DNA of 64,000 bases, from NCBI GenBank assembly GCA_964633205.1, contig CAZWFN010000001.1, positions 114,219 through 178,218 on the forward strand, given 5' to 3'. The position numbers and the translations under genes are program-made. Under the pieces are notes generated by a model. The model ran no database searches, had not been told where the DNA came from, and was given only the letters and a program-made list of their open reading frames with translations. How positions within the stretch are numbered: the first letter of the stretch is position 1; each line of letters begins with the position of its first letter. This DNA is from an uncultured Myxococcales bacterium (GTDB lineage Bacteria; Myxococcota; B64-G9). Below are positions 9,541 to 64,000 of the stretch, one piece after another.

Positions 9541-10299
9541 TCAGAAGCGGCGGTCGGCCAGGAAGGGCATCTCCTCGCGGATGGTGGCCACCCGGTCGAG
9601 GTCGATCTCGGCCATGACCAGGTCCTCGCCGCTGCCGGCGAAGGCCAGGCAGTCGCCCAGCGGGTCGTAGATGGCCGAGCCGCCGCGGAAAGCCAGCCCG
9701 CCGCCGCGGCCCACCCGGTTGACGCCGACCACGTAGCACTGGTTTTCCACCGCTCGGGCCGGCAGCAGCAGGTCCCAGTGGCGCTGGCGCGAATCGGGCC
9801 AGGAGGCGATGACGCAGACCAGGGCGCAATCGTCGGCCACCTGCCGGAACAGCTCCGGAAAGCGCAGGTCGTAGCAGACGAAGCAGGCGGCCCGGTGGCC
9901 GTCGAGCGCGAAGGGCTGCGGTCGATCGCCGGGCTGGTGGACCGCGTCCTCGCCCAACAGTCCGATCAGGTGGGTCTTGGCGTAGCTGGCCAGCAGCGCG
10001 CCGCGCTCGTCGACGGCCACCGCGCTGTTGCGCCCCTTGCCGCCGCCGGCCAGCACCACCCCGCCGATCAACCCCAGCCGCAGCTGCTGGGCCAGCTCGC
10101 GCAGAAAGGACATCGTCGGCCCATCCTCGGGCTCGGCGGTCAGCTCCGGCCGCAGGCTGAAGCCGGTGGCGAACATCTCGGGAAGCACCAGCCAGTCCAC
10201 CCCGTGTTCGGCCGCCGAACGCGCCGCCCGCCGCACCCGGGCGAAGTTGGCCGGCTTGTCCTCCCACACCGGCGCGTACTGCAGGCCAGCGATCTTCAT
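9541..10299 (-). CDS. carbon-nitrogen hydrolase (nitrilase superfamily, omega-amidase-like)
   Basis: The E-K-C triad context is present (LVLPEMFATGF, YAKTHL, CYDLRFPE). The ATG at 10299 overlaps the stop of the upstream aminotransferase gene (ATGA). The 5' part of the track ORF (to 11436) is an antisense artefact. Confidence 0.8.
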   Translation of the reverse strand: MKIAGLQYAPVWEDKPANFARVRRAARSAAEHGVDWLVLPEMFATGFSLRPELTAEPEDGPTMSFLRELAQQLRLGLIGGVVLAGGGKGRNSAVAVDERGALLASYAKTHLIGLLGEDAVHQPGDRPQPFALDGHRAACFVCYDLRFPELFRQVADDCALVCVIASWPDSRQRHWDLLLPARAVENQCYVVGVNRVGRGGGLAFRGGSAIYDPLGDCLAFAGSGEDLVMAEIDLDRVATIREEMPFLADRRF

Positions 10300-11477: not shown

Positions 11478-11618
11478 GCGCACTCCTTTGCTCTCCGAAT
11501 CGACCGGGCCCAATGTAGCACGAGCCGAGCGGTGCATTCCAAGGGCCCGCGGTTGAACGCCGCGGCTGGCCGTGGCAAATTGCCCCCAGGTCGGGGGTGG
11601 CGCAGACCGAGGGCGAGG

Positions 11619-13169: not shown

Positions 13170-13171
13170 CC

Positions 13172-14476: not shown

Positions 14477-15708
14477 GCGGACGAGACCCGCGATCGCACG
14501 CGCGCCCGGCTTCCGGCCGGCGGCCGCTGCGCCATCTGCTGTTCGCCGCCGGCGCCGATCGCTGCATCGCCTGCGGCACCTGCGCGGCCGGTTGTCCGGT
14601 GGCCGACTGGGACCAAAACCGGCTGGATCCGCGGCGGATGGTGCGCCTGATCCACTACGGCCGGGCCGACCTGTTGATCGGGCAGGACTGGCTGTTCCAG
14701 TGCACCAACTGCGGCAAATGCACCTTCAACTGCCCGGCCAAGGTCGACCTGGGCCAGATCATCAGCCAGGCCCGCGGGCTGGTGGAACGCCACCGGGATC
14801 CCGGCCCGGCCCAGATCCAGAAGACCGCCGAGTTGCACCGCGACACGGACAACAACATGGGGCTGGCCGAGGAGGACTGGCTCGAGACCGCGGAGTGGAT
14901 GGCCGAAGAGCTGGCCGACGCGATCGGCGATTTCGCGCTGCCGGTCGATCGACCCGGGGCCGAGTACTTCGCCACCTTCAACTCCAAGCTGCCGATGTAC
15001 TACCCGATCGATCTGCAGGACATCTTCAAGATCTTCACCCTGGCCGGGGTCGACTGGACCCTGCCGCGGCACTGGTGGGAAGGCACCAATTACGCCATGT
15101 TCACCCACGACGAAGCCACCTGGGCCGAGACCCTGCGCCGGCAGGTGGCCGAGGCGCAGCGGCTGGGCTGCCGCAAGATGGCCTACACCGAGTGCGGTCA
15201 CGGCTACTACGCCACCCTGAGCGGGCTGCGGCGCTTCGGCATCGAGACCGATCTCGAGGTCATCCACGTGGTCTCGCTGTATGCGCAGTGGATCCGCGAG
15301 GGCCGCTTCGAACTCGACCCCGACCGCAATCCGCAGCGCATCACCATCCACGATCCCTGCAACGCCACCCGCAAGGCGGCCCTGGACGGCTTCCCCTCGA
15401 TCGCCGACGATCTACGCTTCGTGCTCGACCACGTCTGCCGGGAGGTGGTCGAGCCCACCCCCAACCGCGAGGCCAACATCTGCTGCGGCGGCGGCGGTGG
15501 CACCCTGCTGGCCGGGTTCAAGCAGGCGCGGCTGCACTACGGCCGGCCCAAGGTCGATCAGATCGACCGCACCGGCGCCGAGCTGGTCTGCACCCCGTGC
15601 GTCAACTGCCTCGACGCCATCGAAGGCCTGGCCCGGGCCTACGAGCGCCCCTGGAGGCCCATCCACCTCTGGAAGTTGCTGGCCAGGGCCATCGTGGTGC
15701 CCAGCTGA
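14473..15708 (+). CDS. glpC: anaerobic glycerol-3-phosphate dehydrogenase subunit C (Fe-S, CCG domains)
   Basis: Two ferredoxin-type clusters (CIACGTCAAGCP, CTNCGKCTFNCP) and CCG-domain cysteines (HDPCNATR, CCGGGGG). ATGA overlap with glpB. Confidence 0.8.
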   Translation: MSGRDPRSHARPASGRRPLRHLLFAAGADRCIACGTCAAGCPVADWDQNRLDPRRMVRLIHYGRADLLIGQDWLFQCTNCGKCTFNCPAKVDLGQIISQARGLVERHRDPGPAQIQKTAELHRDTDNNMGLAEEDWLETAEWMAEELADAIGDFALPVDRPGAEYFATFNSKLPMYYPIDLQDIFKIFTLAGVDWTLPRHWWEGTNYAMFTHDEATWAETLRRQVAEAQRLGCRKMAYTECGHGYYATLSGLRRFGIETDLEVIHVVSLYAQWIREGRFELDPDRNPQRITIHDPCNATRKAALDGFPSIADDLRFVLDHVCREVVEPTPNREANICCGGGGGTLLAGFKQARLHYGRPKVDQIDRTGAELVCTPCVNCLDAIEGLARAYERPWRPIHLWKLLARAIVVPS

Positions 15709-17303
15709 ACCTGGGGCCGGGGCATCCGGTAGCTGCGTTGGGTGGACTCGGGCTGCTGGCCGATTCCGTGCTCCAGCTTGTAGCGGGTAAGCTGCATCAA
15801 GACCGGAACCACCTTGGCCTGGAGCCGCTGCTTCCAGTTCATGGGGCCGGTCTCGCGCCGGTTTCTCTCCAGCAGCCCCGCCAGCCAATCCCGCACCGGG
15901 GCGTTCAGATAGGGCAGAGCACCCGGCATCAGGACCATGGACTCGTGCGCCGTCTGGCCGTACTTCGCGGCCTTGGCCCGAATCCGTTCATTCCGATGCC
16001 CCCGCAGATTGACGTGTCCGTTCAGGTAATCCTCGACCACCCGGTAGATGGAAGGCCCCAGCCGCTCGAACTCCCGCCGGTAGAGATCGCGGTGGATGGA
16101 CAACAGCTGCTCGGGTTCCATGTGCGGGTGTGTATAGGCGGGGTAGAATCCATCCTGCTTGGAGGTGTCGTCCCTGATCTCGGGCCTGAAACGACCCGCC
16201 TCGACCAGGCGCTTGAAGCCCGGGGTACCGTGGGCCGGGCCGTAGATCAAGAACTGGCTCATGGATGGGCGCAGCCGCATCAGCTCTTCGAACTCCGCCT
16301 CGATGATCTCCGGCGTCTGGTAGTCGAAGCCGATGATCATCGAGGCCAACACGCTGATGCCGTGCTGTTGCAGATCCGCAAACAGATCGCGGTAAGAGCG
16401 GCCCCGCATCTTGTCATACCCGGCCCGTTTGCCCTCGAAGCCGACCCAGATCCAATCGATCCCCATCTCGACCAGCTCGGCGGCGCTGAACTGGGACAGG
16501 GCCTTGACGCTGGAGAAGATGCTCAACGACAGCGGCGGCAGGTCGGAGCGGCGAATGGCCGCCAGGAACTCCCGGCCGCGATTCTCGTCGAGCAGGAAGT
16601 CCTCGTCGTTGATCCAGAAGTCGACCATGTCCGGATAGCGGGACCGGAGATCCTGGATGGCCTGCAGAATCGAGCCGCCATCGGGCAACAAGCGGATGTG
16701 CTCGCGCTTGTAGTAGTGGGAGGTGGCGCAGAAATCGCATCCGTTGGGACAGCCCAGGCCGGCGATGATGTAGCCGACCTGACCCAGCACGGGCATCGAG
16801 AACACCGACTGGCGTTGGGTGATGGCCGGCTGGCGCAGGGGCCGGTCGACGGGCTCACCGAGCAGCCGGCGCATGAAGGCCACCCCTTCGCCCTGGCAGA
16901 TGTGGTCGGCATAGGGAGTCAGATCCTTGTCCATGGCCGTACCGTAACCGCCCAGGATGATCTGCGTCCCGGGCGCGTGCTCACGGATGGCCTCGACCAT
17001 GGGCACCATCTTGTGGAAGGTCGCCACCACGAAAGCGATGCCGATGTAGTCGTAGCCCTTGCGGATCTCGGCGATGAACTGCTCCATGGTCGGGTAGTGC
17101 AAGGTGGTGGTGGGGATCTGCAGGTTCTCGGCGATGAAATCGATGCCCCACTGGGTGGTGGTGGCCCGGGTGCGAAAGATGCCCTGGGCCCACATGATCT
17201 GGTGGCTGCCCTCGTAGGACGCACCGAAGCCGTCACCGTGCTCTTGGCCGAAGGGTTGGCAGACGGAGGTGAGCAGGAGCTTTTGAGAATTGGTTGCAGT
17301 CAT
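15639..17303 (-). CDS. B12-binding radical SAM protein (class B radical SAM, possible methylase)
   Basis: N-terminal cobalamin-binding-like domain, then the radical SAM cluster motif CPNGCDFC. The 3' end overlaps the glpC 3' end by 70 bp. Confidence 0.8.
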   Translation of the reverse strand: MTATNSQKLLLTSVCQPFGQEHGDGFGASYEGSHQIMWAQGIFRTRATTTQWGIDFIAENLQIPTTTLHYPTMEQFIAEIRKGYDYIGIAFVVATFHKMVPMVEAIREHAPGTQIILGGYGTAMDKDLTPYADHICQGEGVAFMRRLLGEPVDRPLRQPAITQRQSVFSMPVLGQVGYIIAGLGCPNGCDFCATSHYYKREHIRLLPDGGSILQAIQDLRSRYPDMVDFWINDEDFLLDENRGREFLAAIRRSDLPPLSLSIFSSVKALSQFSAAELVEMGIDWIWVGFEGKRAGYDKMRGRSYRDLFADLQQHGISVLASMIIGFDYQTPEIIEAEFEELMRLRPSMSQFLIYGPAHGTPGFKRLVEAGRFRPEIRDDTSKQDGFYPAYTHPHMEPEQLLSIHRDLYRREFERLGPSIYRVVEDYLNGHVNLRGHRNERIRAKAAKYGQTAHESMVLMPGALPYLNAPVRDWLAGLLERNRRETGPMNWKQRLQAKVVPVLMQLTRYKLEHGIGQQPESTQRSYRMPRPQVQLGTTMALASNFQRWMGLQGRS

Positions 17304-50419: not shown

Positions 50420-52255
50420 TCAGGTCGCCGCGGTCCGGCCGGTCATTCGGGTCGAGCCGTCGAGCCAGCGGCGGATGGTGCGCTCGAGCGCATTCGGCTC
50501 GAACGGTTTGAACAGGCAATCGTCCATGCCGCACTGCAGACAGCGGGCGCGGTTTTCGTCGGTGACATTGGCGGTCACAGCCAGTATGGGGATCCGCCGG
50601 TCACCGCGCAGGGCCTCGCGCCGGCGGATGGTGGCGGTGGCCTCAAAGCCATCCATCTGCGGCATGTGGCAATCCATGACGATCAGATCGTAGTCGGACA
50701 GGCCGGTGCGCTCGACGGCCTCACCGCCGTCGCCCACCAACTCCACCCGCGCCCCCAGCCGTTCCAGCATCAGCCTCAGCAACAGCCGGTTGTTGGGATC
50801 GTCCTCGGCCACCAGCAGCCGCGCCCCTTCCGCCGCGGCTTCGCTCGCGGCTTCTGCCCCAGCCACCTTCCGCTCCGACTGCCGCGGACCGGGTCCCTCC
50901 GAGACCGTCGCCCCGGCCCGCGGCAAGCGCAGGGTGAACCAGAACCGCGATCCCCGGCCGACCCGGCTGTCCAGCTCGAGCACCCCACCCATGGATTCCA
51001 CCAGCCGCCGGCTGATGGCCAGCCCCAGGCCGACCCCGCCGCGCGGCGACCGTTGCGGGCACTGGCCCTGCTGAAACTCCTCGAATACCCGGACTCGCTG
51101 CTCTGGAGGAATGCCGACCCCGGTATCGCTGACCTCCCAGCGCAACGCGCAGCAACCGTCCCGCCCGGCGGTCGCCGCGATCCGCAGCTCGACCCGACCG
51201 CTCTCGGTGAACTTGATGGCATTGCCCACCAGGTTGTCCAGCACCTGCCGGATGCGGCCCGAATCGCCCAGCACCGCTGGCGGGCAGCCGGGATCGGCCT
51301 CGAGCGCCAGCGTCAAATGCCGCTCCTGAGCTGCCGCGCCGAACAGCGCGCACACCTCGGCCGCCAGCGCCGCCGGCGCGAAAGGCCGGCAGTTGGGCGC
51401 GCTCCCTCCCGCCTGCAAGCGCGACAGCTCGAGCACATCGTCGATGATGGTCAGCAGGTGCTCGCCGGAGCGATGGATGGTGTCGACCAGCTCGCGCTGG
51501 TGCTTCTTGAGCGGGCCGTCCGCCAGAACGCTGTTCAGCCCCAACATTCCGGTCAGCGGGGTGCGCAGCTCGTGGCTCATGGCGGCCAGGAAACGACTCT
51601 CCACCGCCGCTGCCTGCTCCGCCTGGCGGCGGGCGGCGTGGGCCTCCTGCTCGGCCCGCCGCCGTTCCTCGGCCTCGCGCTCCAGGCGCCGCTGGGCCCG
51701 ATCGCGCAGCAGCTCGGAGACGACCGAGACCGCGGTCACGAACACCAGCGCCCCGAACCAGCGCTGGCTGAAGATGGCCGGGTAGTCCACCGGCAACCAA
51801 CCGCTGGGCAGCGCCAGCACCAACCCGGCGACCAGCACGAAGGCGCCGGTCCACAGGCCGCCCCAGCGGCGGCCGAGGCAAAACATGGCCATCGGCGGAT
51901 AGACGAACACCCAGACGGCGCCGGTGCCCCGCACCCCACCGGTGCCCAGCAGGTAGATCAGCAGCCCGGCCACCCCGCTCATGGCCACCATGGTCGATGG
52001 CCAGTAGCGCTTGCTCCAGCGCAGGTGGACGACACAGCCGATCGACATCAGGGCCACTCCGCCCAACACCGCCGACAGCACCGGCTCGCCGGCCAGCAGC
52101 GCAGCGACCAGAAACCAGCAGGTGACCAACAAGCCGACAAAGGCGAACCCCTGGGCCATCAAGACCCGCCGCCGGCACTCGGGATCCGCGGGTTGCGCAC
52201 AGGCGGCCAGCAAGAAGCGCTCGATGCGAGCGCGCATCCCGACTTCATCCCGCGG
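50420..52255 (-). CDS. hybrid sensor histidine kinase / response regulator (membrane-bound)
   Basis: N-terminal TM helices, H-box SHELRTPL, N/G boxes (NLVGNAIKFT, DTGVGI, GGVGLGL), and a C-terminal receiver (LLVAEDDPNNR...DLIVMDCHMPQMDG...K). Confidence 0.85.
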   Translation of the reverse strand, partial: PRDEVGMRARIERFLLAACAQPADPECRRRVLMAQGFAFVGLLVTCWFLVAALLAGEPVLSAVLGGVALMSIGCVVHLRWSKRYWPSTMVAMSGVAGLLIYLLGTGGVRGTGAVWVFVYPPMAMFCLGRRWGGLWTGAFVLVAGLVLALPSGWLPVDYPAIFSQRWFGALVFVTAVSVVSELLRDRAQRRLEREAEERRRAEQEAHAARRQAEQAAAVESRFLAAMSHELRTPLTGMLGLNSVLADGPLKKHQRELVDTIHRSGEHLLTIIDDVLELSRLQAGGSAPNCRPFAPAALAAEVCALFGAAAQERHLTLALEADPGCPPAVLGDSGRIRQVLDNLVGNAIKFTESGRVELRIAATAGRDGCCALRWEVSDTGVGIPPEQRVRVFEEFQQGQCPQRSPRGGVGLGLAISRRLVESMGGVLELDSRVGRGSRFWFTLRLPRAGATVSEGPGPRQSERKVAGAEAASEAAAEGARLLVAEDDPNNRLLLRLMLERLGARVELVGDGGEAVERTGLSDYDLIVMDCHMPQMDGFEATATIRRREALRGDRRIPILAVTANVTDENRARCLQCGMDDCLFKPFEPNALERTIRRWLDGSTRMTGRTAAT

Positions 52256-52430
52256 TCGTTCCATCGCCTGCTCCGGGGCTGGGCGGAGTCGATCCGTCCG
52301 CCAGTATCGACCCTGGCCGGCCCGCCTGCAAGCGCCCGGCACCGGGGGACCCCGGTTTGGCCCCCGCTCTCTTACCTCGACCGCTTTGCCCCCGGCGTCG
52401 ATCTGTGCGAAACAGGCTGCGGGAGACGGG

Positions 52431-54931
52431 ATGCACCGCGGAGCGATCATCGCCGCTGGAAATGCCCATTCGCCGCTGGCGGTGCGGCTGGGTGTGGTCG
52501 TCGGGCTCATCTTGCTGGCGCTGCCGGCCGCGGCTGCGGATCCGCCGCCGGCCCGCAGGCTGCGGGCGGTGCGGCTGGAGCAACGGCCGCAGATCGATGC
52601 CCGGCTGGGCGAGGCGGTCTGGTCGCGGGCGCCGGTGGCCAGCGGATTGATCCAACGCTTCCCCCACACCGGCCGGCCGGCCTCCATGGCCACACGCATC
52701 CAGGTGGCCTATGACGATAACGCGCTTTACGTGGCGGCCCGCTGTCTCGATCCAGAGCCGGAGCACATCGTCGCCCGCACCACCCGGCGCGATCGCTGGA
52801 TCGAATCCGACTGGTTCACCGTGACCATCGACAGCCGCCGCGATCGGCGCACCGCTTACTTCTTCGCGGTCAACGCCGCCGGAGTCCTGCGCGACGGCAC
52901 CCTGCGCGACGAGAACGTGACCGATGACGCCTGGGATGGTGTCTGGTCCGCGGCCGCCAGCGTCGACGCGCAGGGCTGGCTCGTCGAAATGCGGATCCCG
53001 CTGCGCTTGCTGCGCTACAGCTCCGGCAGCGACGTTCGTTTCGGCATCCAGTTCGAGCGCTGGATCAGCCGCCGCAACGAGTCGGACTACTGGCAGCACA
53101 TTCCCCCCGACAGCGGCCGCTGGGTGTCGCGTTTCGGCACCTTGACCGGGCTCGACCTGCCCCCGCCGCCGCTGGCGCTGACGCTGACGCCCTACGCGGC
53201 CGCCCGGCCGCGGATCCACGATGCGGCCCTGACCGGTGAGCGTCCGCTGGAGCTGGGCGCCGACGGCAAGCTCGGGCTGGGCAGCAACTTCATGTTCACC
53301 TGGACCGTCAATCCCGACTTCGGCCAGGTCGAGGTGGACGAGAAGGTGCTCAATCTTTCCACCTACGAGACCTTCTTCCCGGAGAAGCGGCCTTTCTTCC
53401 TCGAAGATCGCTCGCTGTTCCGGCTGAGCGACTCCGGAGGCTACGGCGACGCCCAGCTGTTCTACACCCGGCGCATCGGCCGCCAGCCGCGCTCGCCGCA
53501 GCTGGAAGCTGATCAGCGCTTGATCCGACCGGCGCCGGTACCACGCATCTACGGGGCCGCCAAGCTGGCCGGCGAGACCCGGGGCCAGCTCAAGGTGGGC
53601 TTGCTGCAGGCGATCACCTCGCAGGAGCGGGTCGTGTTGCAGACAGCCGACGGCCGCCGCGCCTCGAAGCCGGCAGAGCCGCTGACATCCCACAGCGTGG
53701 CACGCTTGCAGCAGGGGTTTTGGCGCCACTCCTCGGCGGGTCTGCTGGCCACCGCCATGGCCACCCCGAACGACGGCGCCGCGCTGACCGGCGGCGGTGA
53801 CGTACAGCTCGAGTTGTTCGACGATCAGGCCCAGCTTACGGCACAGGGGCTGGTCAGTTACCTGAGTCGAGCCCGCTTCGGCTGGCAGGACCAGTACCTG
53901 CAGGCGGCGCTCGGTCGCGACGGCCCCTTCGGCTACGGCGGCCGGCTGAAGCTGGCCAAGACCGGCGGCGAGCACCTGGTGGGCTCGGTCAGCACCTTCT
54001 ACTACAGCCCCAACCTGGCCCTGAACGACATGGGCTATCTGGACCGCGCCGACCGTTTCATGCTCAGCGCCAGCCTGCGCCACCACCGCACCAAGCCGCT
54101 GGGTCCGCTGGCGCGCTACGCCATCCAGCTCAACGGCTGGCTCGACCGCAGCGCCGACTTCACCTTCAACCTCGGCGACGGCTTCAGCGTCGACGCCTGG
54201 GTCGACTTCGTCAACGGCTGGTATGCCGGTGCCTGGACCTTCGTCGGCTGGCCCCTGTGCGACGATCGCGAGACGCGCACCGCCGGCCGCATCGCCTTCT
54301 GCGGCCATGATCTGCGCACCAAGGTGGGCTTCTACGGCCAGACCAGTGAAAAGCACCCGGTGGCGGTGGGGCTGGATGCCGGCTGGAAGAGCACCGAACG
54401 GGGGCAGGGTTTCTGGCTGAGCTTGCCGCTGACCTTCAACCCGCTGGCCCGGCTGCAGATCAGCTTGCTGCCCGGCTACGAGCGCACGACCGGTCAGCCG
54501 CGCTGGCTGGAGACCCGCGACGCCGGAGCCGAGCAACGCTTCTCGTTCGCCGATCAGCACGCCGAGATCTGGGACATCACCCTGCGCACCACCTTCAGCT
54601 TCACCCCCCGGTTGAGCCTGCAGGCCTTCGCCCAGCTGTTTCTGGCCGCGGTGGATCACGGCCAAAAGTACAGCGCCACCGTCGCCGGTCGCCGCCTCCG
54701 GCTCGGCGACTTGCAGCCCGATCCGGCGGTGGCGGACGAATACGACTTCACCTCCACCGCGCTGCAGGTCAATTTGATCCTGCGCTGGGAGTTCAAACCC
54801 GGCTCGTTGCTGTATCTGGTCTACAACGGGGCGCTGGGCGACAGCGCCGCGCGGCCGGAGTTCCGCTTCGGCCCTTTGCTCGGTGACCTGTTCGCCGGCC
54901 GGGCCAGCCACCTGCTGGTGCTCAAGCTGAC

Positions 54932-54947
<16 letters not shown>
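52431..54947 (+). CDS. DUF5916 / carbohydrate-binding-family-9-like outer-membrane-associated protein
   Basis: Signal peptide, a CBM9/DOMON-like start (IDARLGEAVWSRAP), a large beta-rich body ending ...LKLTYFFG. A GGGAGACGGG RBS precedes the ATG. Confidence 0.55.
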
Positions 54948-56499
<1,552 letters not shown>

Positions 56500-56526
56500 A
56501 GGTCCCTCCGGAGCCGGCGGCTGCAG

Positions 56527-56579
56527 CGCGATATTTCGAAGACGACGCGAAATAGCATAACCAATTCGCGAAATATCGC
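56527..56579. promoter_or_regulatory. operator-like inverted repeat (GCGATATTTCG ... CGCGAAATATCGC) in the divergent intergenic region
   Basis: Arms at 56527-56539 and 56567-56579, with a third half-site CGCGAAATAGC in between. The local sequence is AT-rich relative to the genome. Confidence 0.4.
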
Positions 56580-56685
56580 AATGGACAGCCCTGGTACACC
56601 ATAACACACAGATTGAAAAGGGATTATTTTGGGCATGCTCCTTGCGACGCAGTCCTCGGAGATTCTGCCACAGGAGGTTTGCGAG

Positions 56686-57444
56686 ATGGAGCGCCACCGG
56701 TCTTTCTTCGCGGCCAGCACCCTGGCGCTGGTGCTGCTCACCGGCCCAGCCGCCGCCGGCGCTGATGCGGGTGAGCGCATCCTGCGCCTGATGGATGCCC
56801 AGCTGACCTCGGCCGACAGCCAGTACTTCGAATACGAGATGATCACCCGCACCCCGGGCCGCGGCCAGCGCAGCACGGTCTTCGAGGTGACCATACAGGG
56901 CGATCAGCGCCGGCGGCTGGAGTTCCTCGCCCCGGGCGACGTCAAGGGCATGCGGGTGCTGATCCTGTCGCTCGACCGGATGTACGTCTACCTGCCGGCC
57001 TACCGCAAGGTGCGCCGGGTGGCCAGCCACGTGCGCGACCAGGGCTTCATGGGCTCGGCATTCAGCCACGACGACATGTCGGTGGTCACCTATGCCGACA
57101 AGCTCAGCGGCCGCCTGCTCGCCGAGGACGACGAGCACTGGACGGTCGAGGCGGTGCGGCGTGCCGACAGCGACTACCGCTACGCCAAGCTGCGCCTCGT
57201 CATCCGGCGCGACATCCGCCATCCGGCGCGCATCGAGTACTTCAACGCCGCTGGCCAAAAGGTCAAGACCGAGACCCGCAGCGCCTATGAGTGCCGCGGC
57301 CAGCACTGCAATCCCAAGCGCATGACCCTGGTGGATCACACCCGCGGCGGGGTGACCAGCGTGCTCGAGCGGCGGGCGTGGAAGATCGAACCCGAGGTGC
57401 CGGCCAACTTCTTCAGCGTCCGCTCGCTGCAGCGCCGTCGCTAA
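56686..57444 (+). CDS. LolA-like outer-membrane lipoprotein-sorting-family protein
   Basis: An AGGAGG RBS precedes the ATG. Signal peptide and LolA-like beta-sheet pattern. Confidence 0.55.
   Translation: MERHRSFFAASTLALVLLTGPAAAGADAGERILRLMDAQLTSADSQYFEYEMITRTPGRGQRSTVFEVTIQGDQRRRLEFLAPGDVKGMRVLILSLDRMYVYLPAYRKVRRVASHVRDQGFMGSAFSHDDMSVVTYADKLSGRLLAEDDEHWTVEAVRRADSDYRYAKLRLVIRRDIRHPARIEYFNAAGQKVKTETRSAYECRGQHCNPKRMTLVDHTRGGVTSVLERRAWKIEPEVPANFFSVRSLQRRR
57408..57437 (+). repeat. 30-bp direct repeat, copy A (3' end of the LolA-like gene)
   Basis: CTTCTTCAGCGTCCGCTCGCTGCAGCGCCG is identical to 57817-57846. Confidence 0.7.
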
Positions 57445-57453
57445 ACCCAAGGT

Positions 57454-57475
57454 CCCCCGCCCGAAGGGCGGGGGA
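57454..57475 (+). terminator. GC-rich stem-loop after the LolA-like gene stop
   Basis: CCCCCGCCC-GAAG-GGGCGGGGG, 10 nt after the TAA stop. No U-tract follows. Confidence 0.45.
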
Positions 57476-57575
57476 TGACAAAATAAATGACTTAGAGAGC
57501 CCATAGGCCCTTGGTGATGCCCGAACGACAACATGTTGGTCGAAACGGATGCAACCACATAAGAGCGGGTACGAT

Positions 57576-57618
57576 TAAGCCAACACCCGACGCAAGCGAA
57601 GTCTTGCGTCGGGTGTAG
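57576..57618. repeat. 43-bp REP-like palindromic element, copy 2 (inverted relative to copy 1)
   Basis: The reverse complement is identical to 25306-25348. Confidence 0.7.
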
Positions 57619-57816
57619 AGTCTTGATCCGTACGTTCTCCGCAGCTTGCGTAGAAGTTGTCGATGCTCGACAACGGTGCATCAACTCCAACGCGGCCCGA
57701 CCTTTTTGGTTGCGGCGGCGGTTTGTGCCGTGCCCTTGGGTGCGGAGCCGCGATGGGGCGGGGAGCTTCGCTCTAGCGCGGCCCGGGACGAGTGGGCCCA
57801 GCTCGCCCGCAGCCAG

Positions 57817-57846
57817 CTTCTTCAGCGTCCGCTCGCTGCAGCGCCG
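57817..57846 (+). repeat. 30-bp direct repeat, copy B
   Basis: Identical to 57408-57437; the 3 preceding bases also match at 2 of 3 positions. Confidence 0.7.
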
Positions 57847-57873
57847 CCGGCGGAAAGCTCCGGGCCTGATGCA

Positions 57874-58911
57874 TCAAGGGGCCGGCCACTCGACCACCTC
57901 GATGCGTTCCACCGCCTGGAGCCAGCGGTCGGCGTGCAGATCGCCCGCCAGCACCAGCTGAAAACGCCCGCCATCCGCGAGCGGCCGGCCGCCGCAGCGG
58001 TCGGCCAGCAGGATGCGATCGCCGCCGGGCGCGTATAGCTCGCCCGCCGACACCAGCACCTGGTAGCCATCGGGGGCCGACAGCACCACCGCCCGCTGCG
58101 GATGGAAGGCGAAGCCAGCCGCCTCCAGCAGCACGCGCAGCCGCACGCCGCTGTAATGCCGCAGGCCGTGGAAGCCGGTGCCCTCGCCGGTGCGCACCGC
58201 CGTCAACTCGCGCCGCGGCAGATCGGCCGGCAAGGCGTCGAAGGTGCGCGCCGCCACCCCTACCCCTTCCAGGCGGACTTCCGCTGCGTAGAGGCGCTGC
58301 CGGGCATCGCGCTTCGGCGCGGGCGACGCCGGGCGCGGCTCCACCACCGCGATCGCGACCACCGGCTCCACGGCCCGGTCGCCGTAGATCACCCCGGACG
58401 GCACCAGCTTGGGCAGGGCCACCCGGCGCTGCAGCTGCTCCAGCCGCGGCCGCGCTTCGGCCGGCTGGTGGCAGCGGCTGCAGGCCTTGTGGGGCCGCAC
58501 CGGGGTCCAGTCGGTGGCCAGAATGAAGCGGCCCGGATCGCTGTAGAACACCTCGCCCCAGGACAGCAGCACCGAGCGCCCCCGCCGATCGCGAACGGCG
58601 ATGGCCAGGTCGGTCGGCTTGCGGAAGGCGCCGGCGCTCTTGCCCAGCCGGGCCAGCTCCAGCACCTGCCGCAGCGACGCACCGCGATAGCGCATGGTGC
58701 CGTGGAAGCTGCCGTCGCGGTGCACCTCGCTGAGCTGAACTGCATGGTGTGGCAGGCGCTGCAAGTCGGCCAAGCGCAGCCGCAGCGGCTGGCCGACCGC
58801 GCCGCTGATGCGCAGTTCGGCCGGCCGGACCGCAGCCCCGGCTCCAGCCCCGGCTGCAGCCACCGCGGCCGCCAGCAGCAAGGCCCCGCTGCCTGTTGCG
58901 TACCGTGCCAT
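57874..58911 (-). CDS. secreted protein with two tandem sulfite-oxidase-fold (molybdopterin-oxidoreductase-like) domains and one CXXCH haem c motif
   Basis: Signal peptide. Two repeats carrying the W.GV.L..LL..AG ... P.RLV.PG....W...V..IEV pattern. CSRCH sits at nt 58468-58482 between the two domains. Confidence 0.55.
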   Translation of the reverse strand: MARYATGSGALLLAAAVAAAGAGAGAAVRPAELRISGAVGQPLRLRLADLQRLPHHAVQLSEVHRDGSFHGTMRYRGASLRQVLELARLGKSAGAFRKPTDLAIAVRDRRGRSVLLSWGEVFYSDPGRFILATDWTPVRPHKACSRCHQPAEARPRLEQLQRRVALPKLVPSGVIYGDRAVEPVVAIAVVEPRPASPAPKRDARQRLYAAEVRLEGVGVAARTFDALPADLPRRELTAVRTGEGTGFHGLRHYSGVRLRVLLEAAGFAFHPQRAVVLSAPDGYQVLVSAGELYAPGGDRILLADRCGGRPLADGGRFQLVLAGDLHADRWLQAVERIEVVEWPAP

Positions 58912-58934
58912 CCCGGACAGGCGCCTCCGTCGCA

Positions 58935-59777
58935 TCAGACCACTCCTTTCTCGGCTCCGGCGTCACGCCGGCGGCGGCCCAGCAGGCCTTCGACGTAGAA
59001 CCACAGCAACAGAATCAGCACCAGCCCGAAGGCCGGCAGGATGATCGGCAACCCCGGGTCGTAGACCACCAGCAGGCTCGGCCGCGGCCCGCTGGCCGCC
59101 GGGGTGGGCCCGGCATGATCGCAGCTGACCGCGCGGTCCGCGGCGGCCGGTCTCTTCTCCAGCGGTCGATCCAGCAGCAGGTGGCGACCGCGGAACGAAG
59201 CGGGGTCCAGGTGGACCACCTCCAACCGATCGCCCCCCGGCCCGCGCAGCCGGACCCGCTGCCGCGCCAGCCACTGGCCCAACCGCGAGCCGGGTGGAAA
59301 GGCCTCGCCCTCGAAGCCGATCACCTGCAGTTCGGCCCCGGCCACCTCGATCCGGCCGCCCGGCCCGGGCAGGCCCAACCGCTGCCAGCTGCCCCACCCC
59401 AGGGTGATCGCATGGCCGACCAGGATCGCCCAGAACAGGATATGGATGGCGGTCGGGATCAGGGCCACCGTCCAACGGTGGCCGCCCAGCTCGCGCCGCC
59501 GGGGCCATAGGGTGCGCAGCCGTTGCAGGGCGCAGACCGCGGTGTTGATCGCCAGCGCCGTCAGGCACAGCAGCAACAACAGCAGCCACCAGCAACGATG
59601 CCACTCATCGGCCAGGTGGCGGGCCAGCCAAATCGGGGTGGCCAGACGGTTGAGCTGGCCGAACAGGGCCTTGTCCGAGGCGTACAGACCGCCGATCAGC
59701 ATGCAGCCGGCCGCCGCCAGCAGCAGCCAGAAGGCCAGCCGCAGGTCCCCCATCGCGCGCCACAGCCGCAGCCACAC
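58935..59777 (-). CDS. compact ResB-like (CcsB-family) membrane protein
   Basis: N-terminal TM, then an LFGQLNRLATPIWLARHL...WWLLLLLLCLTALAINTAVC ResB-like segment, a TM with conserved His (WAILVGHAIT), a periplasmic region, and a C-terminal TM. GTG start is 1 nt after the upstream gene's stop. The track ORF's N-terminal 100 aa is an out-of-frame overlap. Confidence 0.5.
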   Translation of the reverse strand: MWLRLWRAMGDLRLAFWLLLAAAGCMLIGGLYASDKALFGQLNRLATPIWLARHLADEWHRCWWLLLLLLCLTALAINTAVCALQRLRTLWPRRRELGGHRWTVALIPTAIHILFWAILVGHAITLGWGSWQRLGLPGPGGRIEVAGAELQVIGFEGEAFPPGSRLGQWLARQRVRLRGPGGDRLEVVHLDPASFRGRHLLLDRPLEKRPAAADRAVSCDHAGPTPAASGPRPSLLVVYDPGLPIILPAFGLVLILLLWFYVEGLLGRRRRDAGAEKGVV

Positions 59778-59778
59778 C

Positions 59779-60555
59779 TCAGCCTCCGATCCGTGGGAAG
59801 AACAGCTCCTGCACGGCGCTGCTGGCCGATATCGCCAGGCCCACCAACCCGGCCACCACGGCGAAGCCGGCCCGGCGCTGCAGCGGCCAGCGGGGCAGGT
59901 AGCGCAGGTGCAGGTAGGCGGCGTAGAGCAGCCAGACGCCGGCCGAGAACAGGTGGCGCGGGCTGAAGCGGAAGGTGTTGCCCCAGCCCAGATAGCACCA
60001 GGCGAAGCCGACCACCTGGGCGATGCTGAAGGCCACCAGGCCCCAGACCAGGTAGGCGTGGAAGCCGGCGGGCTCACCGCGGTGGGGCCGCAGCAGCGCC
60101 AATGCGGCCCACCAGGCTCCGCCGAGAAAGGCCGCGTAGGCCAGCCCCTCGGTGATGAAGAAGGCGGTGGCCAGCGCGGTGATCTTGCGCGGCTCCGGGG
60201 GCAGGATGCCCTGGGCGTAGGCGATGCTGAAAGCCAGCAGCGCCAGCGCCGGTACCAGCCCCAGGCCCCAATGCGACGACCCCCGGGCCAAGCGTTCCAG
60301 GCCGGCCAGCAGGGCCAGACACCAGGGGATGAAGAAGGTGCCCTCGAATACGGGATTGGCGATCCAGACCCCGCCCAACCAGCCGCGGCCCAGCAGGGCC
60401 AGCGCGTGGATCAGCAGCCCGGCGCAGTAGAACCACCAGGCCGGCCCGAGCCGGCTGCTGCGCCGCGCCGGCCAGCGCCACCAGAGCAGCAGGGCGCCGG
60501 CGTAGCAGAGCAGGGCGATGACCAGGTAGCTGGGCCTGCCGGTGGTGAACACCAT
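59779..60555 (-). CDS. cytochrome c assembly protein family (CcsA/HemX-like) with degenerate WWD motif
   Basis: Polytopic membrane protein. GFAWCYLGWGNTFRFSPRHLF...WLLYAAYLHLRY aligns with the CcsA WG.YWSWDPKE...YLH region, but WDPKE is replaced by RFSPRH. Confidence 0.55.
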   Translation of the reverse strand: MVFTTGRPSYLVIALLCYAGALLLWWRWPARRSSRLGPAWWFYCAGLLIHALALLGRGWLGGVWIANPVFEGTFFIPWCLALLAGLERLARGSSHWGLGLVPALALLAFSIAYAQGILPPEPRKITALATAFFITEGLAYAAFLGGAWWAALALLRPHRGEPAGFHAYLVWGLVAFSIAQVVGFAWCYLGWGNTFRFSPRHLFSAGVWLLYAAYLHLRYLPRWPLQRRAGFAVVAGLVGLAISASSAVQELFFPRIGG

Positions 60556-60565: not shown

Positions 60566-62632
60566 TCAACCGGCGCTCAGCCGGTAGCCGCACCAGACGC
60601 TCAGGCCCCGGTCGGGGAAGCCGTAGCGGGTCTGGTAGTTCATGTCGAGCAGGTTGCCGGCCTTGCAGAACAGGCGCACCCCGGGCGCCGGCTGGTAGGC
60701 CAGGCTGGCGTCCCAGACCACGAAGGTGCCCAGGGTGCCCAGGCCCAGGATGCTGTAGTCGTCGAAGGGCTGCGGCCCGACCACCCGCAGCAAGCTGCCG
60801 ATCTCCCAGCGCTCACCCGGCTCGGCCAACAGCCGCAGGCTGGCCTGGTGGCCGGGGATCTGGGCGATGCGGTCGTCCAGCCGGTCGGCATTGATGGTGC
60901 GCGCGTGCACAAAGGCATAGGCCGCCTGCAGCTGCAGCCAGGGCCAGGGCCGGGCCACCAGGCCGGCCTCGAAGCCGGCCAGCCGCGCCCGGCCGACATT
61001 CCGCTGCTGGCTCAGACCGCGGGTCTCGGGCAGCCAGACGCGCATGATCAGATCGTCGACCTCGGCCTCGAACACGGACAGGTCGAGCCGCAGCGGCGCG
61101 GCCACCTGCCAGGAGACGTCCAGGGCGGTGTACAGGGCCCGCTCCGGCTTCAAGGTCGGGTTGGCCACGGTGAAGCCCTTGGTGGCCGAGTAGCGCTCGC
61201 CCAGCGTGGGCAGCCGGTGGCGGCCGGCCACCGACAACCGCAGCAGCCAGACCGGGCTCGGCTCGTAGCGCAGCGCGATCAGCGGCGCGCACAGCACCCG
61301 GATCGGCGTCTCGGGCTCGTCCTCGCCGGCGCCGGCGGTGCGGCTGGCGTACAGCGGCACGTCCACGTCGAGCTGGGCCGAGCCGATCAGGCCAAGCGCG
61401 TCCGACGCCAGCCACTCCAGCTCCGGCACCAGCCGGGTGAGCAGCCGGCCGGAGGAGCGGCGCGGCTCGTCGCGGTCCAGCCGGTCGTGGTGGTGATCGG
61501 CCCGGGCCTCGAGCCACAGCCGGCCCACCAGCCGGCCCGGCAGCGGCGCGCTCAACCGCAGCCGGGCGCCCAGGCTGCGCTCGTGGTACCAGGAGACGAA
61601 GGCGTTGGGTCCCTGCTGGCTGTTGTAGCCGGCGTCGTCGTAGCCGTCCAGCCGGTTGCCGTAGAAAGCGCCGTAGGCCACCTCGTCGCCCTGCAGCCCC
61701 CCGGCCCGCCAGCGGTGGCCCGCCTGGACCAGCAGCGCCTGCCAGACCGTGAAGCGGCGGAAGAAGGGCCGCATGTCGGTCATGTGCCGCGGCACCCCGA
61801 ACACGCCGTCCAGAAACGTGGCCTGCAGCCACAGCTGCTGGGTCTCGGCGAGGCGGTAGCGCAGCTTGGCGCTAACGTGGGCCATGAACCGATCGCTGTT
61901 GTCCAGCCGGCCACCGTCCTCGATCACCCGCTCGCCGACCGTCACCGGCTCGAAGCGCGACGACAGCTGAACACCGTCCGAGTCCTGCACCCCGGCGCCC
62001 ACCGCGTAGGCCAGTGGACCGGCTTCCAGGGAGTGGGCCAACCAGGTGTGCAGCTCGCCGGCTACACCGAGTTGGGCCAGATGCGCGATCAGCGGTGCCC
62101 GGGCCGGATCGCGGGTCTCGATCAGCACCGCGCCGCCCATGCCGCCCGGAGCGTGGGCGATGGAGGTGGGCCCCTTGAGCAGGCGCACCCGATCGATCAG
62201 CTCCACCGGCAGCTTGCCCAGATCGGTCGAGCCCGAGTAGGGCATGGCCAGCGGCACCCCGTCGAGATAGACCGCCACCCCGCGCTGGTCGAATCCGCGC
62301 AGCCGGATGGTGCGGCGACCGCTGCGGCCGCTGGAGGCGTAGACCGAGGGCTGCTGCTCGATCAGCTCGGCGGCGCTGGTCACCGCCCGCCGCTCGACCT
62401 CCTCGCGCTCCAGCCGCACCCGGCTGGAGCCGCGATCGACCGGCCGCTGCTCGCGGATGGTGAAGACCTCGTCGACCGCCTCGGAACCGTCTGCCGCTGC
62501 GGATGCCTCGCGTTCCCCGTCCTCGGCGTCTTGGTCGCCGGCGGCCAGCACCGGCAGCGGCGCTGCCATCCAGGCGACGCCGGTCAGCAGCCATACGGCT
62601 GCTCGGCCGATACGGGCGAGGGGCGCGATCAC
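60566..62632 (-). CDS. TonB-dependent outer-membrane receptor
   Basis: Signal peptide, plug domain (IRLRGFDQRGVAVYLDGVPL), and a long beta-barrel with Tyr/Gly-rich strands. Confidence 0.85.
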   Translation of the reverse strand: MIAPLARIGRAAVWLLTGVAWMAAPLPVLAAGDQDAEDGEREASAAADGSEAVDEVFTIREQRPVDRGSSRVRLEREEVERRAVTSAAELIEQQPSVYASSGRSGRRTIRLRGFDQRGVAVYLDGVPLAMPYSGSTDLGKLPVELIDRVRLLKGPTSIAHAPGGMGGAVLIETRDPARAPLIAHLAQLGVAGELHTWLAHSLEAGPLAYAVGAGVQDSDGVQLSSRFEPVTVGERVIEDGGRLDNSDRFMAHVSAKLRYRLAETQQLWLQATFLDGVFGVPRHMTDMRPFFRRFTVWQALLVQAGHRWRAGGLQGDEVAYGAFYGNRLDGYDDAGYNSQQGPNAFVSWYHERSLGARLRLSAPLPGRLVGRLWLEARADHHHDRLDRDEPRRSSGRLLTRLVPELEWLASDALGLIGSAQLDVDVPLYASRTAGAGEDEPETPIRVLCAPLIALRYEPSPVWLLRLSVAGRHRLPTLGERYSATKGFTVANPTLKPERALYTALDVSWQVAAPLRLDLSVFEAEVDDLIMRVWLPETRGLSQQRNVGRARLAGFEAGLVARPWPWLQLQAAYAFVHARTINADRLDDRIAQIPGHQASLRLLAEPGERWEIGSLLRVVGPQPFDDYSILGLGTLGTFVVWDASLAYQPAPGVRLFCKAGNLLDMNYQTRYGFPDRGLSVWCGYRLSAG

Positions 62633-63489
62633 AGGTCGGCCAGGTAGACCTTCACCACCGCCTTGACCCGGGCACAGCCGCCGATATCGAGCTCCGGGTC
62701 GAAGGTCAGCTGGCTGGTATCGACCACCAGGCCGCAGCGGCCGGCCAGCGCGCCGTCGACCGGCAAATAGTCGGTGCAGCGGTTGGCGGCGGTGGGCCGA
62801 TAGCCGTCGCTGCCCTCGAAGTCCATGCTGATGGCATTCGGGTCCAGCCCCAGCTCGGAGGCGGCCAGAATGGTCTCCAGCAGCACCACCTGCTCACCGT
62901 CGAGCTCGGCGGCGGCCAGGCCGCCGGCGTCGACCACCACCGCCTGATCGCCGTAGTGGACCTCCACCTCACCCAGCTCCTGGGCGGGATCGGGGTCCGG
63001 ATCCGGATCCTCACCGAGCAGCTCCTCCCGGGTGTCGGCCAGTCGGATCGAGGCCACGTCCTTGACGAACATGCAGCGCTCGAATTCGAGCTCCGGTTCC
63101 CACTCCAGGTTGCGGGTGCCGCGTTCGATGGTGCCGCGGTCGATGACGTCGGTCTGGGCCGGAGCCATGTCGGGCTCGCAGGTGCCGATGGGCGAGAAGC
63201 CGTCCGCGCCCACGAAGTCGATCCACAGCCCGCCGGCGTCGACCACCAGGCCGGAGCCGGCCACCAGCTCGTCGACGTAGACCACCGGCTTGTTGGGACC
63301 GAGCTCCACCGTATTCACATCGTCGAAGTGCACCACCTGGCTGAAGTCGCCGTAGCTGACCTCCACGCTCTGACCGCCCTCGGTCCACTTGTCGTCGCCC
63401 TCGTCCACCGACTGGCTGCAGCCGGCGGTGGCCAGCAGCAGGGCCAGCCCTCCGACCAAGAATCTGAAATAGCTATATTTTGGTGTCAT
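62629..63489 (-). CDS. lipoprotein with internally duplicated domain, first gene of the TonB-receptor operon
   Basis: Lipobox LLLATAGCS. Two repeats (V.VDAGGL...F.G.DG..P...C) and a DPDPDPDP linker. Its stop overlaps the TBDR ATG (ATGA). A GGAGGATGG RBS precedes the ATG. Confidence 0.55.
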   Translation of the reverse strand: MTPKYSYFRFLVGGLALLLATAGCSQSVDEGDDKWTEGGQSVEVSYGDFSQVVHFDDVNTVELGPNKPVVYVDELVAGSGLVVDAGGLWIDFVGADGFSPIGTCEPDMAPAQTDVIDRGTIERGTRNLEWEPELEFERCMFVKDVASIRLADTREELLGEDPDPDPDPAQELGEVEVHYGDQAVVVDAGGLAAAELDGEQVVLLETILAASELGLDPNAISMDFEGSDGYRPTAANRCTDYLPVDGALAGRCGLVVDTSQLTFDPELDIGGCARVKAVVKVYLADL

Positions 63490-63606: not shown

Positions 63607-64000
63607 TCAGCGCTCGATGCGCACCGCTGCCCGGCCCGTGCCGTCCAGCTGCACCGCCACCGGCGGCAGAAGCTGTTCGCTGCGGGCATCGTAGGCCAGC
63701 AGCTCGATCTCTTCGCCGGGGGCCCCCTGCAGCTCGACCGCGATGGCACCGCCGGCCACCCGTACGGCCGAAAAGCGCCGGTCGGCCAGGGTGACGAACT
63801 TGGCCGGCTCGCCGATCAGGGCCAGGCCGTTGTCCAGCACCGGTGCCAGCACCAGGTAGCCGAAATCGTAGAGATCGGTGAACGGCTCGACCTCCATCCG
63901 GCCGCGGACCAGCCGGGCCGTCCGGTGCCGCCAGTCGTAGGCCACCCGCTCGCGGTCGCAGCCCAACTCCGCCTCCAGATCGACCTGCCAATCGCGCACC
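63607..64000 (-). CDS. 3' part of a gene continuing beyond the window end (C-terminal beta-sandwich-like domain)
   Basis: The open frame runs to the window edge and has protein-like composition. The start is outside the window. Confidence 0.4.
   Translation of the reverse strand, partial: VRDWQVDLEAELGCDRERVAYDWRHRTARLVRGRMEVEPFTDLYDFGYLVLAPVLDNGLALIGEPAKFVTLADRRFSAVRVAGGAIAVELQGAPGEEIELLAYDARSEQLLPPVAVQLDGTGRAAVRIER

Follow-up and report, generated by a model that had tools for sequence, protein, structure and literature searches.

A 64,000-nucleotide stretch of DNA from an uncultured Myxococcales bacterium (contig CAZWFN010000001.1, positions 114,219 to 178,218; the window) contains a gene at 57874..58935 on the minus strand for an exported protein of 353 amino acids, in which a single CSRCH motif lies between two domains of the sulfite-oxidase (SUOX) fold. 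This fold normally binds the molybdenum cofactor (Moco), and the locus therefore raises the question of whether the protein, referred to below as the target, is a heme-only protein built on a Moco fold or a new heme-Moco enzyme. The gene was examined through its open reading frame (ORF) and translation, a match to Pfam PF00174, an AlphaFold2 (AF2) model and Foldseek comparisons. The reading we prefer, to which we give an even chance, is a heme-only periplasmic Moco-fold protein acting as the redox-active partner of a TonB-dependent importer, served by a CcsA/ResB-like heme-handling module and handling a cargo that is probably linked to molybdenum or tungsten (Mo/W).

Heme motif and fold of the target

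The minus strand at 58468-58482 reads TGC AGC CGC TGC CAC, as given in the first-pass annotation, and on rereading these codons were in frame with the 353-residue ORF. The translation around the motif (RPHKACSRCHQPAE) contains PHKACSRCHQP, in which CSRCH (aa 152–156; 58468..58482, minus strand) is the predicted covalent heme c site and H156 the predicted proximal ligand, directly preceded by the conserved residues P148-H-K150. The target contains three cysteines (152, 155 and 314) and 10 histidines, a composition from which about 7e-4 CxxCH motifs would be expected. Given this low expected count and the fixed position of the motif in homologs, the motif is, on sequence grounds, beyond chance. 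A Sec-type signal peptide was predicted by hydropathy at approximately aa 1–36 (58828..58935, minus strand), with a hydrophobic core at aa 18–36; the N-terminal segment was modeled by AF2 as a helix with a low predicted local distance difference test score (pLDDT). The predicted signal peptide implies that the target is located in the periplasm. A plain hydrophobic N-terminus was found in 112/119 full-length family members and a twin-arginine translocation (Tat)-like RR motif in 1/119, as judged by a motif scan and not by a dedicated predictor. The target thus carries CXXCH within an exported protein, as expected of a c-type cytochrome, and in exported bacterial proteins this motif is overwhelmingly a heme c site. 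We consider it likely, with good confidence, that CSRCH is a genuine heme c site, and from the motif we infer that it is occupied by heme.

Relatives of the target were few in a word-indexed search, which returned only 8, and numerous in an exhaustive profile search, which returned 2,641 cluster representatives at E<=1e-3 and at least 127 at E<=1e-30. The motif histidine was invariant in the nine closest sequences and both cysteines were present in 8/9; sequence P0008 keeps the motif histidine without both cysteines. CXXCH occupied the same alignment columns in 48/82 aligned members, with strict C-x-x-C-H spacing and variable x residues in all 48, and most of the other members had deleted the loop. 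Among homologs from the related loci described below, 78/91 contained CXXCH; the remaining 13 were searched for any replacement motif and none was found. The first-pass annotation had made its proposal depend on the motif being present in close homologs, and this is what was observed. The heme-less relatives have lost approximately 7–16 residues from the segment that carries the motif.

The Pfam family PF00174 (Oxidored_molyb) matched the target in two stretches with E=7e-9, and the two halves of the protein matched each other with an hhalign probability of 99.2%. The AF2 model, built from an alignment of 82 sequences, had a pLDDT of 92.9 and a predicted template modeling score (pTM) of 0.87. 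When this model was compared with the PDB using Foldseek, the confident matches were solely SUOX-fold proteins, including SorA, chicken and plant sulfite oxidase, SoxC, YedY and nitrate reductase at E values of 3e-7 to 4e-5, with 2blf, 1sox and 1xdq at approximately 3e-7 and probability 1.00. Small Moco-free pterin-binding PruR proteins were matched at 1e-4 to 2e-3, with TM-scores of 0.57–0.65 normalized to PruR. The claim that two sulfite-oxidase-type domains are arranged in tandem was therefore borne out by the Pfam, hhalign and Foldseek matches, and modeling of the full protein, which had been proposed as a check, returned a SUOX fold.

Domain 1 (aa 38–146; 58498..58824, minus strand) is SUOX/PruR-like and contains the conserved motif S125-W-G-E128. 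It is followed by an inter-domain insert (aa 147–214; 58294..58497, minus strand) that bears the heme motif and the conserved residues R170, P175, D182, R187 and E190, of which R187 is invariant. The CXXCH had been described as standing alone in a linker; its position between the two domains was upheld, but the segment (aa 146–214) is not a floppy linker, since it was modeled with a helix at 158–167 and strands at 176–179 and 192–198, with pLDDT mostly >90. Domain 2 (aa 215–352; 57880..58293, minus strand) is SUOX-like and the most conserved region of the target, with the motifs G250-E-G-T-G-F-H256-G, S286-A-P-D-G-Y-Q292, E299, G323-R-F, D332 and D336-R337; in relatives this domain spans positions 28–162 of the 169 in the Pfam hidden Markov model. 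The GEGTGFHG loop (58165..58188, minus strand) holds both E251 and H256.

The molybdenum-ligating cysteine of the SUOX enzymes was not found in either domain. In a profile alignment of domain 1 covering 60 residues, the cysteine in the 'RMRCVEAW' sequence of YedY (1xdq) was opposite family position 73, which is arginine in the target and R/S/K/G/Q/A across the family. The equivalent in domain 2, located through the hhalign alignment of domain 1 with domain 2, is E251, within the family loop consensus G250-[ED]-G-x-G-[FY]-H256-G. Cysteine was not a common residue at either column in the 82 sequences, and C314, the sole cysteine of the target outside CXXCH, was not conserved. The earlier observation that no Moco-ligating cysteine was evident therefore survived the alignment with YedY by which it was to be checked. 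Known periplasmic molybdoenzymes are loaded with their cofactor in the cytoplasm and exported folded through the Tat system. Taken with the non-cysteine columns and the Sec-type signals of the family, this makes a canonical Moco center unlikely, and we are fairly confident that the target is not a canonical Moco enzyme.

A precedent for such a protein is PruR, a non-enzymatic periplasmic protein that has a SUOX fold with a truncated cleft and no molybdenum-ligating cysteine, works with Sec signals and binds free pterins (PMC11194511). PruR proteins from Agrobacterium and other Proteobacteria (PDB 7kos, 7kom and 7rkb) were the best size-matched single-domain matches to the target, and like it are exported, cysteine-less SUOX folds, although small. 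They differ from the target in being single domains of approximately 146 aa with Pro-Trp at the cysteine position and no heme, and in being encoded with the diguanylate cyclase/phosphodiesterase DcpA, while the target has two tandem domains, R73 and E251 at the cysteine positions, a heme c insert and a genetic context of a TonB-dependent receptor and CcsA/ResB-like proteins; no dcpA-like gene was seen among the cluster neighbors. The target also shares a SUOX fold (Foldseek E approximately 1e-7), a pairing with heme and a periplasmic setting with SorAB, SoxCD, animal sulfite oxidase with its cytochrome b5, and YedY/MsrP with MsrQ. The MsrPQ system offers a further parallel, as a periplasmic SUOX-fold protein with a His-rich heme-binding membrane partner (MsrQ, heme b). 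In these molybdoenzymes, however, there is a Cys-Mo-molybdopterin center, export is through Tat if they are periplasmic, and the heme is carried by a subunit or domain of its own, whereas the target lacks such a cysteine and has a Sec-type signal and a heme site between two shorter SUOX-like domains. Of the two possibilities raised at first, the heme-only protein on a Moco fold is thus favored by the non-cysteine columns, the Sec signals and the PruR precedent, and the new heme-Moco enzyme is disfavored.

Conservation across the family separates residues that accompany the heme from those that do not. E128, R187, D289-G-Y-R292, E299, D332 and R337 were invariant or near-invariant in both the CXXCH-bearing and the heme-less subsets, with E128 and R187 invariant in all 82 sequences, which indicates that the core function lies in a pocket, mostly of domain 2, and is not heme-dependent. 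Enriched in the heme-bearing subset were H149, R170, E190, E/D251 and H256. Position 256 was histidine in 90% of heme-bearing members and 56% of heme-less members, and position 251 was E/D in 34/48 heme-bearing members and R/H in 20/34 heme-less members. No conserved methionine that could serve as a distal ligand was present in the family alignment, and from its conservation H256 is probably the best candidate for this ligand.

The operon and its recurrence in related loci

The target is the last gene of a translationally coupled operon on the minus strand that encodes, in order, a predicted lipoprotein, a TonB-dependent outer-membrane receptor (TBDT), a CcsA-like protein, a ResB-like protein and the target. 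The genes overlap by 1–4 nt or are separated by 1–10 nt, and one base is shared between the ATG start of the target and the stop codon of the gene before it. The TBDT (688 aa; 60566..62632, minus strand) contains a Plug domain (PF07715, E=4.5e-20) and a barrel domain (PF00593, E=3.6e-29), the combination of plug and 22-strand barrel that defines a TonB-dependent receptor. Its top NCBIfam matches were vitamin B12 and heme receptor families, all far below every curated cutoff; selenocysteine-type TBDT families were also among the weak NCBIfam matches.

Upstream of the target are two membrane proteins of heme-handling type. The CcsA-like protein (258 aa; 59779..60555, minus strand) scored 26.1 bits to PF01578, below the cutoff of 29.9, and 35 bits to TIGR03144 against a cutoff of 187.6, while three orthologs of the same subtype scored 40.2–57.7 bits to PF01578, above the cutoff. 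The canonical WWD motif is WGxxWxWDPKE flanked by two periplasmic histidines. The window protein does not have this arrangement: its motif is degenerate (GWGNTFRFSPRH, nt 59953-59988, minus strand), the core being replaced in the subtype by the consensus 'GW...F.WS.RH', and it keeps the N-terminal transmembrane histidine (LLIHAL) and the YLHLRY histidine, with the upstream periplasmic histidine not conserved. The ResB-like protein (272–280 aa, starting at GTG 59777 or ATG 59753; 58935..59777, minus strand) has four transmembrane segments, the third of which contains two conserved histidines (PTAIHILFWAILVGHA, nt 59409-59456, minus strand). The window copy had no Pfam match, and the best ortholog (L049) reached 22.9 bits over 84 N-terminal positions of PF05140, below the cutoff of 24.6, so that the resemblance to ResB is sub-threshold and confined to the N-terminal transmembrane region.

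The recurrence of this cluster was examined by scanning GTDB with each species represented by a single genome, which returned 80 loci, mostly in metagenome-assembled genomes, retrieved by means of two conserved peptides of closer relatives. The window proteins were searched against the six-frame ORFs of these loci, after which all neighboring ORFs were clustered without prior labels; the ORFs were crude stop-to-stop frames trimmed to the first methionine, and one representative of each neighbor cluster was annotated with NCBIfam. The hosts were nearly all anaerobes. They included Desulfarculaceae, Desulfobacteraceae, Desulfatiglandales, Desulfuromonadales/Geobacter and Syntrophales among the Desulfobacterota, together with Thermodesulfovibrionales and Spirochaetota/Leptospirales. 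A TBDT was encoded in 60/81 loci and in 40/46 of those of at least 12 kb, a ResB-like protein in 38/81 and 27/46, a CcsA-like protein in 36/81 and 26/46, and TonB, ExbB and ExbD in 11 of the 81 each. We consider it highly likely that the target is a functional partner of the TBDT. In several loci (L069 at 7859-9708, L081 and L083) the TBDT was split into two adjacent ORFs, for which frameshifts or in-frame UGA codons could be the cause.

The CcsA-like proteins fell into two subtypes, one with the degenerate WWD motif of the window protein and one with a canonical WGD(F/Y)WxW. The canonical subtype was present only in loci in which all targets carry CXXCH (17/17). The subtype of the window stood beside targets that all carry CXXCH in 9 loci, beside a mixture of both kinds in 6 and beside heme-less targets in 5, and no other CXXCH ORF was found in the 5 clusters with heme-less targets. 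As the pair accompanies CXXCH-less targets in clusters with no other CXXCH ORF, it cannot be merely a lyase for the CSRCH site, and the possibility that the pair is solely a dedicated heme lyase was rejected. Plausibly, the CcsA/ResB-like pair is a maturation module for the heme of the target, with this not being its sole role. As with CcsBA (ResB/ResC), NrfEFG and Wolinella CcsA1, a CcsA-family and ResB-like pair is positioned immediately upstream of a CXXCH protein, in the manner of dedicated lyases beside their substrate, and the transmembrane histidine and the LH.R histidine of System II are conserved. Unlike CcsBA, the pair is much smaller (258 and approximately 275 aa) with a small ResB-like periplasmic loop, has GW...F.WS.RH in place of WGxxWxWDPKE, persists without CXXCH and is sometimes located within a modABC-type operon.

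The gene for the predicted lipoprotein (286 aa; 62629..63489, minus strand) ends in a stop codon that overlaps the TBDT start (GTGA). The protein has the lipobox LLATAGC, four invariant cysteines and two internal repeats, each with a 'DFxG(A/S)DG(F/Y)' motif, and has no Pfam family. Only 6 relatives were found among 5.8 billion proteins; a homolog also adjoins a TBDT and target in L052. Its AF2 model (pLDDT 76.5) gave no significant PDB match, and its similarity to the SUOX-like domain was weak, with hhalign probabilities of 2.7% for the single sequence and 21% for the family profile against domain 2. Further upstream, on the same strand, the window ends within a 667-aa ORF (63607-64000, minus strand) of which the C-terminal part is present; it has no Pfam match. 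In L089 this ORF lies approximately 118 nt upstream of the lipoprotein gene, and the operon may begin with it.

On the other side of the operon, 52011-57444 encodes a DUF5916/CBM9 protein (978-aa ORF), a sigma-54 activator (54932-56602, minus strand) and a LolA-like/TP_0789-like protein (56629-57444, plus strand), and the same three flanking genes are kept in an 86%-identical relative (L005/L006). The activator being nearby, a sigma-54 promoter was considered for the operon and rejected: the -24/-12 pattern was rarer than expected by chance and none was upstream of the operon. Another assembly of the same population, L089, contains a target 99–100% identical to that of the window. Between its target and LolA-like genes lies a segment of approximately 5.9 kb (11131-17024) with four genes, including one for a 946-aa CarboxypepD_reg protein, which is absent from the window (compare 57445-57873); this indel shows where the operon ends on its 3' side.

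In approximately 58% of loci the target carries a C-terminal class III tetrapyrrole-methylase domain (PF00590), as in L012, L022, L023, L062 and L075. This domain is closest to CbiL/CobI and CbiF/CobM, below all equivalog cutoffs, and follows the exported part directly with no membrane segment between them. Judged from its motifs, the domain has what looks like an intact site for S-adenosylmethionine (SAM). Loci with the fusion also tend to encode an adjacent APC-family permease (23/47 against 1/34; Fisher p=4e-6, uncorrected for phylogeny). Together with the Sec signal ahead of the domain, these features hint that SAM-dependent reactions may take place in the periplasm. The window target has no such fusion and the window has no APC-family permease.

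Molybdenum and tungsten genes beside the cluster in related loci

At least one Mo/W gene (TupA-like, TupB-like, WtpA, ModA, ModE-domain or TunR-like) was present in 22/46 loci of at least 12 kb, while a few percent of random 16-kb neighborhoods would be expected to carry one, as a rough, uncomputed estimate from typical gene counts. TupA-like binding proteins were encoded in 17 loci as 27 copies (NCBIfam 249 bits, cutoff 400) and TupB-like permeases in 10 loci (below the NCBIfam equivalog cutoff). WtpA and ModA were each encoded in 4 loci, above their NCBIfam cutoffs, and ModE repressor domains in 4 loci (domain model 75.4 bits, below the cutoff of 98.5). Regulators that combine an excisionase-type helix-turn-helix with a molybdate-binding-like periplasmic-binding-protein domain were assigned to 8 loci by their TunR architecture. 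The TupABC, WtpABC, ModABC, ModE and TunR systems are therefore recurrent neighbors of the cluster in its relatives, with none in the window. They differ from the cluster in that their substrates are free oxyanions and that no requirement for an outer-membrane TonB-dependent receptor, a cytochrome or a methyltransferase is known.

In the Desulfarculaceae, CcsA/ResB-like genes are located inside a ModE...ModA-ModB-ModC gene string. In L013, L015, L016 and L019 of this group a second CcsA-like/ResB-like pair occurs in the order ModE-domain, CcsA-like, ResB-like, ModA, permease, ATPase, and this string adjoins the target-TBDT pair. Tandem arrays of 2–4 TupA-like genes lie downstream of the cluster in L022 (approximately 7000-10200) and also in L023, L027, L038, L051 and L082, often after ExbB-ExbD-TonB genes; with their sub-cutoff scores these proteins could bind a different anion. 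In L082 a fluoride riboswitch (RF01734, 48.2 bits; 15197-15266, plus strand) is present approximately 4 kb downstream of the cluster and is probably unrelated.

A Moco riboswitch (RF01055, 67.9 bits against a gathering threshold of 36) was identified at 2687-2806 (plus strand) in L075, from a Desulfuromonadales metagenome-assembled genome. It is followed by a terminator hairpin at approximately 2822-2860 and by the TBDT start at 2912, from which the operon continues with CcsA-like, ResB-like, target-methylase, second target and APC-permease genes. Two other types of regulation were considered for the cluster and rejected. No cobalamin riboswitch of a B12 system was found with Rfam at gathering thresholds in the window and approximately 37 loci, at least 20 of them with intact upstream regions, and a crude scan for Fur boxes upstream of the TBDTs gave 0.045 hits/kb against a background of 0.044.

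Because the cluster in related anaerobes is embedded among tungstate/molybdate transport and regulator genes, and once lies behind a Moco riboswitch, the cargo is most likely a Mo/W species, which may be a pterin-type compound or the metal itself in complexed or thio form. In the mechanism proposed, the TBDT would bring the cargo into the periplasm, where it would be bound by the conserved Arg/Asp/His-rich pocket of domain 2, at the place of the SUOX active site. The adjacent heme c, with H156 as proximal and probably H256 as distal ligand, would exchange electrons with the cargo, either donating or accepting them. The CcsA/ResB-like pair would act as a divergent System-II-type module that supplies or attaches the heme and may relay electrons across the membrane, and the metal would then be handed to the Tup, Mod or Wtp ABC importers.

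Several observations weigh against this proposal. The association counts are phylogenetically non-independent and were obtained from crude ORF calls with one annotated representative per cluster. The TupA-like and TupB-like neighbors score below NCBIfam equivalog cutoffs, the Moco riboswitch was found in only one of approximately 37 related loci scanned, and about half of the long loci are also without Mo/W genes. Neither the window nor the adjoining 10 kb of its parent contig contains a Mo/W gene, so that the link to these metals reaches the window locus by homology only. For the family we regard a Mo/W link as evenly balanced; for the window locus it is tentative and leans toward doubtful. 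The heme is dispensable for part of the family, and the CcsA-like subtype of the window, with its degenerate WWD motif, also occurs beside CXXCH-less targets in 5 loci. The nearest solved relatives of the TBDT are BtuB (1e-17) and then the heme receptors ShuA and PhuR, and the methylase fusion in most relatives suggests a tetrapyrrole. In some loci of the Geobacter type the target belongs to an operon for a FecCD/BtuF-type importer, which favors an organic chelate over an oxyanion. These loci (L042, L055, L063, L070, L073 and L084) are without the CcsA/ResB-like pair, and the same operons also encode a deaminase of the CDA fold that bears a lipoprotein signal, together with a SAM-binding protein resembling TrmO.

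Alternative explanations and significance

The last of these observations lead to a cluster for the trafficking of heme or corrinoids, in which the TBDT would import a tetrapyrrole, the methylase-like domain and target would bind it in the periplasm, the CcsA/ResB-like pair would move it across the inner membrane or hand it over there, and the CXXCH heme would keep it reduced. BtuB, ShuA and PhuR as best solved relatives of the receptor, with B12 and heme receptors as its top NCBIfam matches, fit this explanation, as do the CbiL/CobI- and CbiF/CobM-like fusion, the persistence of members of the heme-handling CcsA/ResB families beside heme-less targets, and FecCD/BtuF-type ABC importers in 8 loci. 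The likeness of the receptor, however, is mainly through the generic plug domain. The cluster does resemble BtuB-BtuG/BtuF and heme receptor systems in its Plug and barrel receptor, upstream lipoprotein, periplasmic partner and, in 11 related loci, TonB-ExbBD, but it differs in a receptor below every curated cutoff, a partner of another fold with a predicted heme, and the lack of any B12 riboswitch in the loci scanned. Fur boxes were not enriched, the recurrent neighbors and regulators (ModE, TunR-like, TupA/WtpA/ModA and the Moco riboswitch) are Mo/W-specific, and SUOX/PruR is a fold for pterins and oxyanions and not a known tetrapyrrole binder. We consider tetrapyrrole trafficking unlikely. 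A narrower form of the Mo/W proposal is that the cluster serves anaerobes for TonB-dependent salvage of the metal from complexed forms, such as exogenous pyranopterin cofactor or its breakdown products and thio- or chelate-bound metal. The receptor would import the complex, the PruR-like domains would bind it and the heme c would oxidize or reduce it; in most lineages the fused Sec-exported SAM-type methylase would modify it, with SAM supplied by the APC-family permease, and the released oxyanion would pass to TupA, WtpA or ModA. A distant parallel is the formation of urothione, a Moco catabolite, in humans, which needs a methyltransferase (PMC9607355). In this specific form the proposal is decidedly unlikely.

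If the target were instead a new heme-Moco or tungsten-cofactor enzyme, domain 2 would hold a pyranopterin with Glu/Asp251 replacing the cysteine, the cofactor would enter the protein once this had been exported by Sec to the periplasm, with the CcsA/ResB-like pair perhaps delivering it, and the heme c would serve as an electron relay as in SorAB and animal sulfite oxidase. Enzymes of this family classically transfer electrons by way of a heme next to the SUOX domain, and Moco riboswitches, one of which controls such an operon here, also precede genes of Moco-using enzymes. Domain 2 of the relatives spans nearly the whole Pfam Moco-domain model, an acidic residue occupies exactly the cysteine position in most heme-bearing members, and the pair is retained where CXXCH is not. 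That position is nevertheless variable (E, D, M, T, R and H), the family is Sec-exported and we know of no pathway for periplasmic Moco insertion. A SUOX-family enzyme without the cysteine ligand is likewise unknown (PMC11194511). The best structural matches among small domains are the Moco-free PruR proteins, and the close association with a TonB-dependent importer is better explained by the processing of a cargo than by a stand-alone oxidoreductase. Such an enzyme is in our view highly improbable. The CXXCH could also be a site without heme, either binding metal through its thiols and imidazole, as with a thiophilic Mo/W-sulfur species, or forming a redox-active disulfide that takes part in disulfide exchange. 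This would suit a metal-acquisition context in sulfidic anaerobes and the degenerate WWD of the window CcsA-like protein, and the motif has been lost while the rest of the protein was kept, with P0008 retaining only the histidine. The strict spacing in 48 bearers, the general association of exported bacterial CXXCH with heme c, the adjacent genes of heme-handling families and the restriction of the canonical-WWD subtype to CXXCH targets make a non-heme site very unlikely. The preferred reading remains that of a heme-only partner of the importer.

No description of the family or cluster was found in a full-text literature search, and no family-specific Pfam or NCBIfam model was among the matches. 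The automatic public labels, which are 'hypothetical', 'YedYZ catalytic subunit' and 'precorrin-4 methylase', are probably misleading. The parts of the system (the SUOX/PruR fold, CXXCH, the CcsA family and the TBDT) are known; what is new is their combination and context. If only the conservative part of the reading is true, the target would represent a second, heme-bearing branch of the recently recognized Moco-free SUOX-fold proteins typified by PruR. More widely, heme-handling proteins of the CcsBA family and methylases of the class III 'tetrapyrrole' fold may have roles beyond cytochrome maturation and corrin/siroheme synthesis. Should the salvage proposal be true, there would be SAM-dependent methylation in the periplasm and a CcsBA-type module recruited to the acquisition of a metal cofactor. 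The cluster bears on how tungsten and molybdenum pass the outer membrane of Gram-negative anaerobes, particularly under sulfidic conditions with little free oxyanion. This question becomes directly testable with a TBDT and a redox-active periplasmic partner encoded near genes of the Tup, Wtp and Mod systems and of their regulators.

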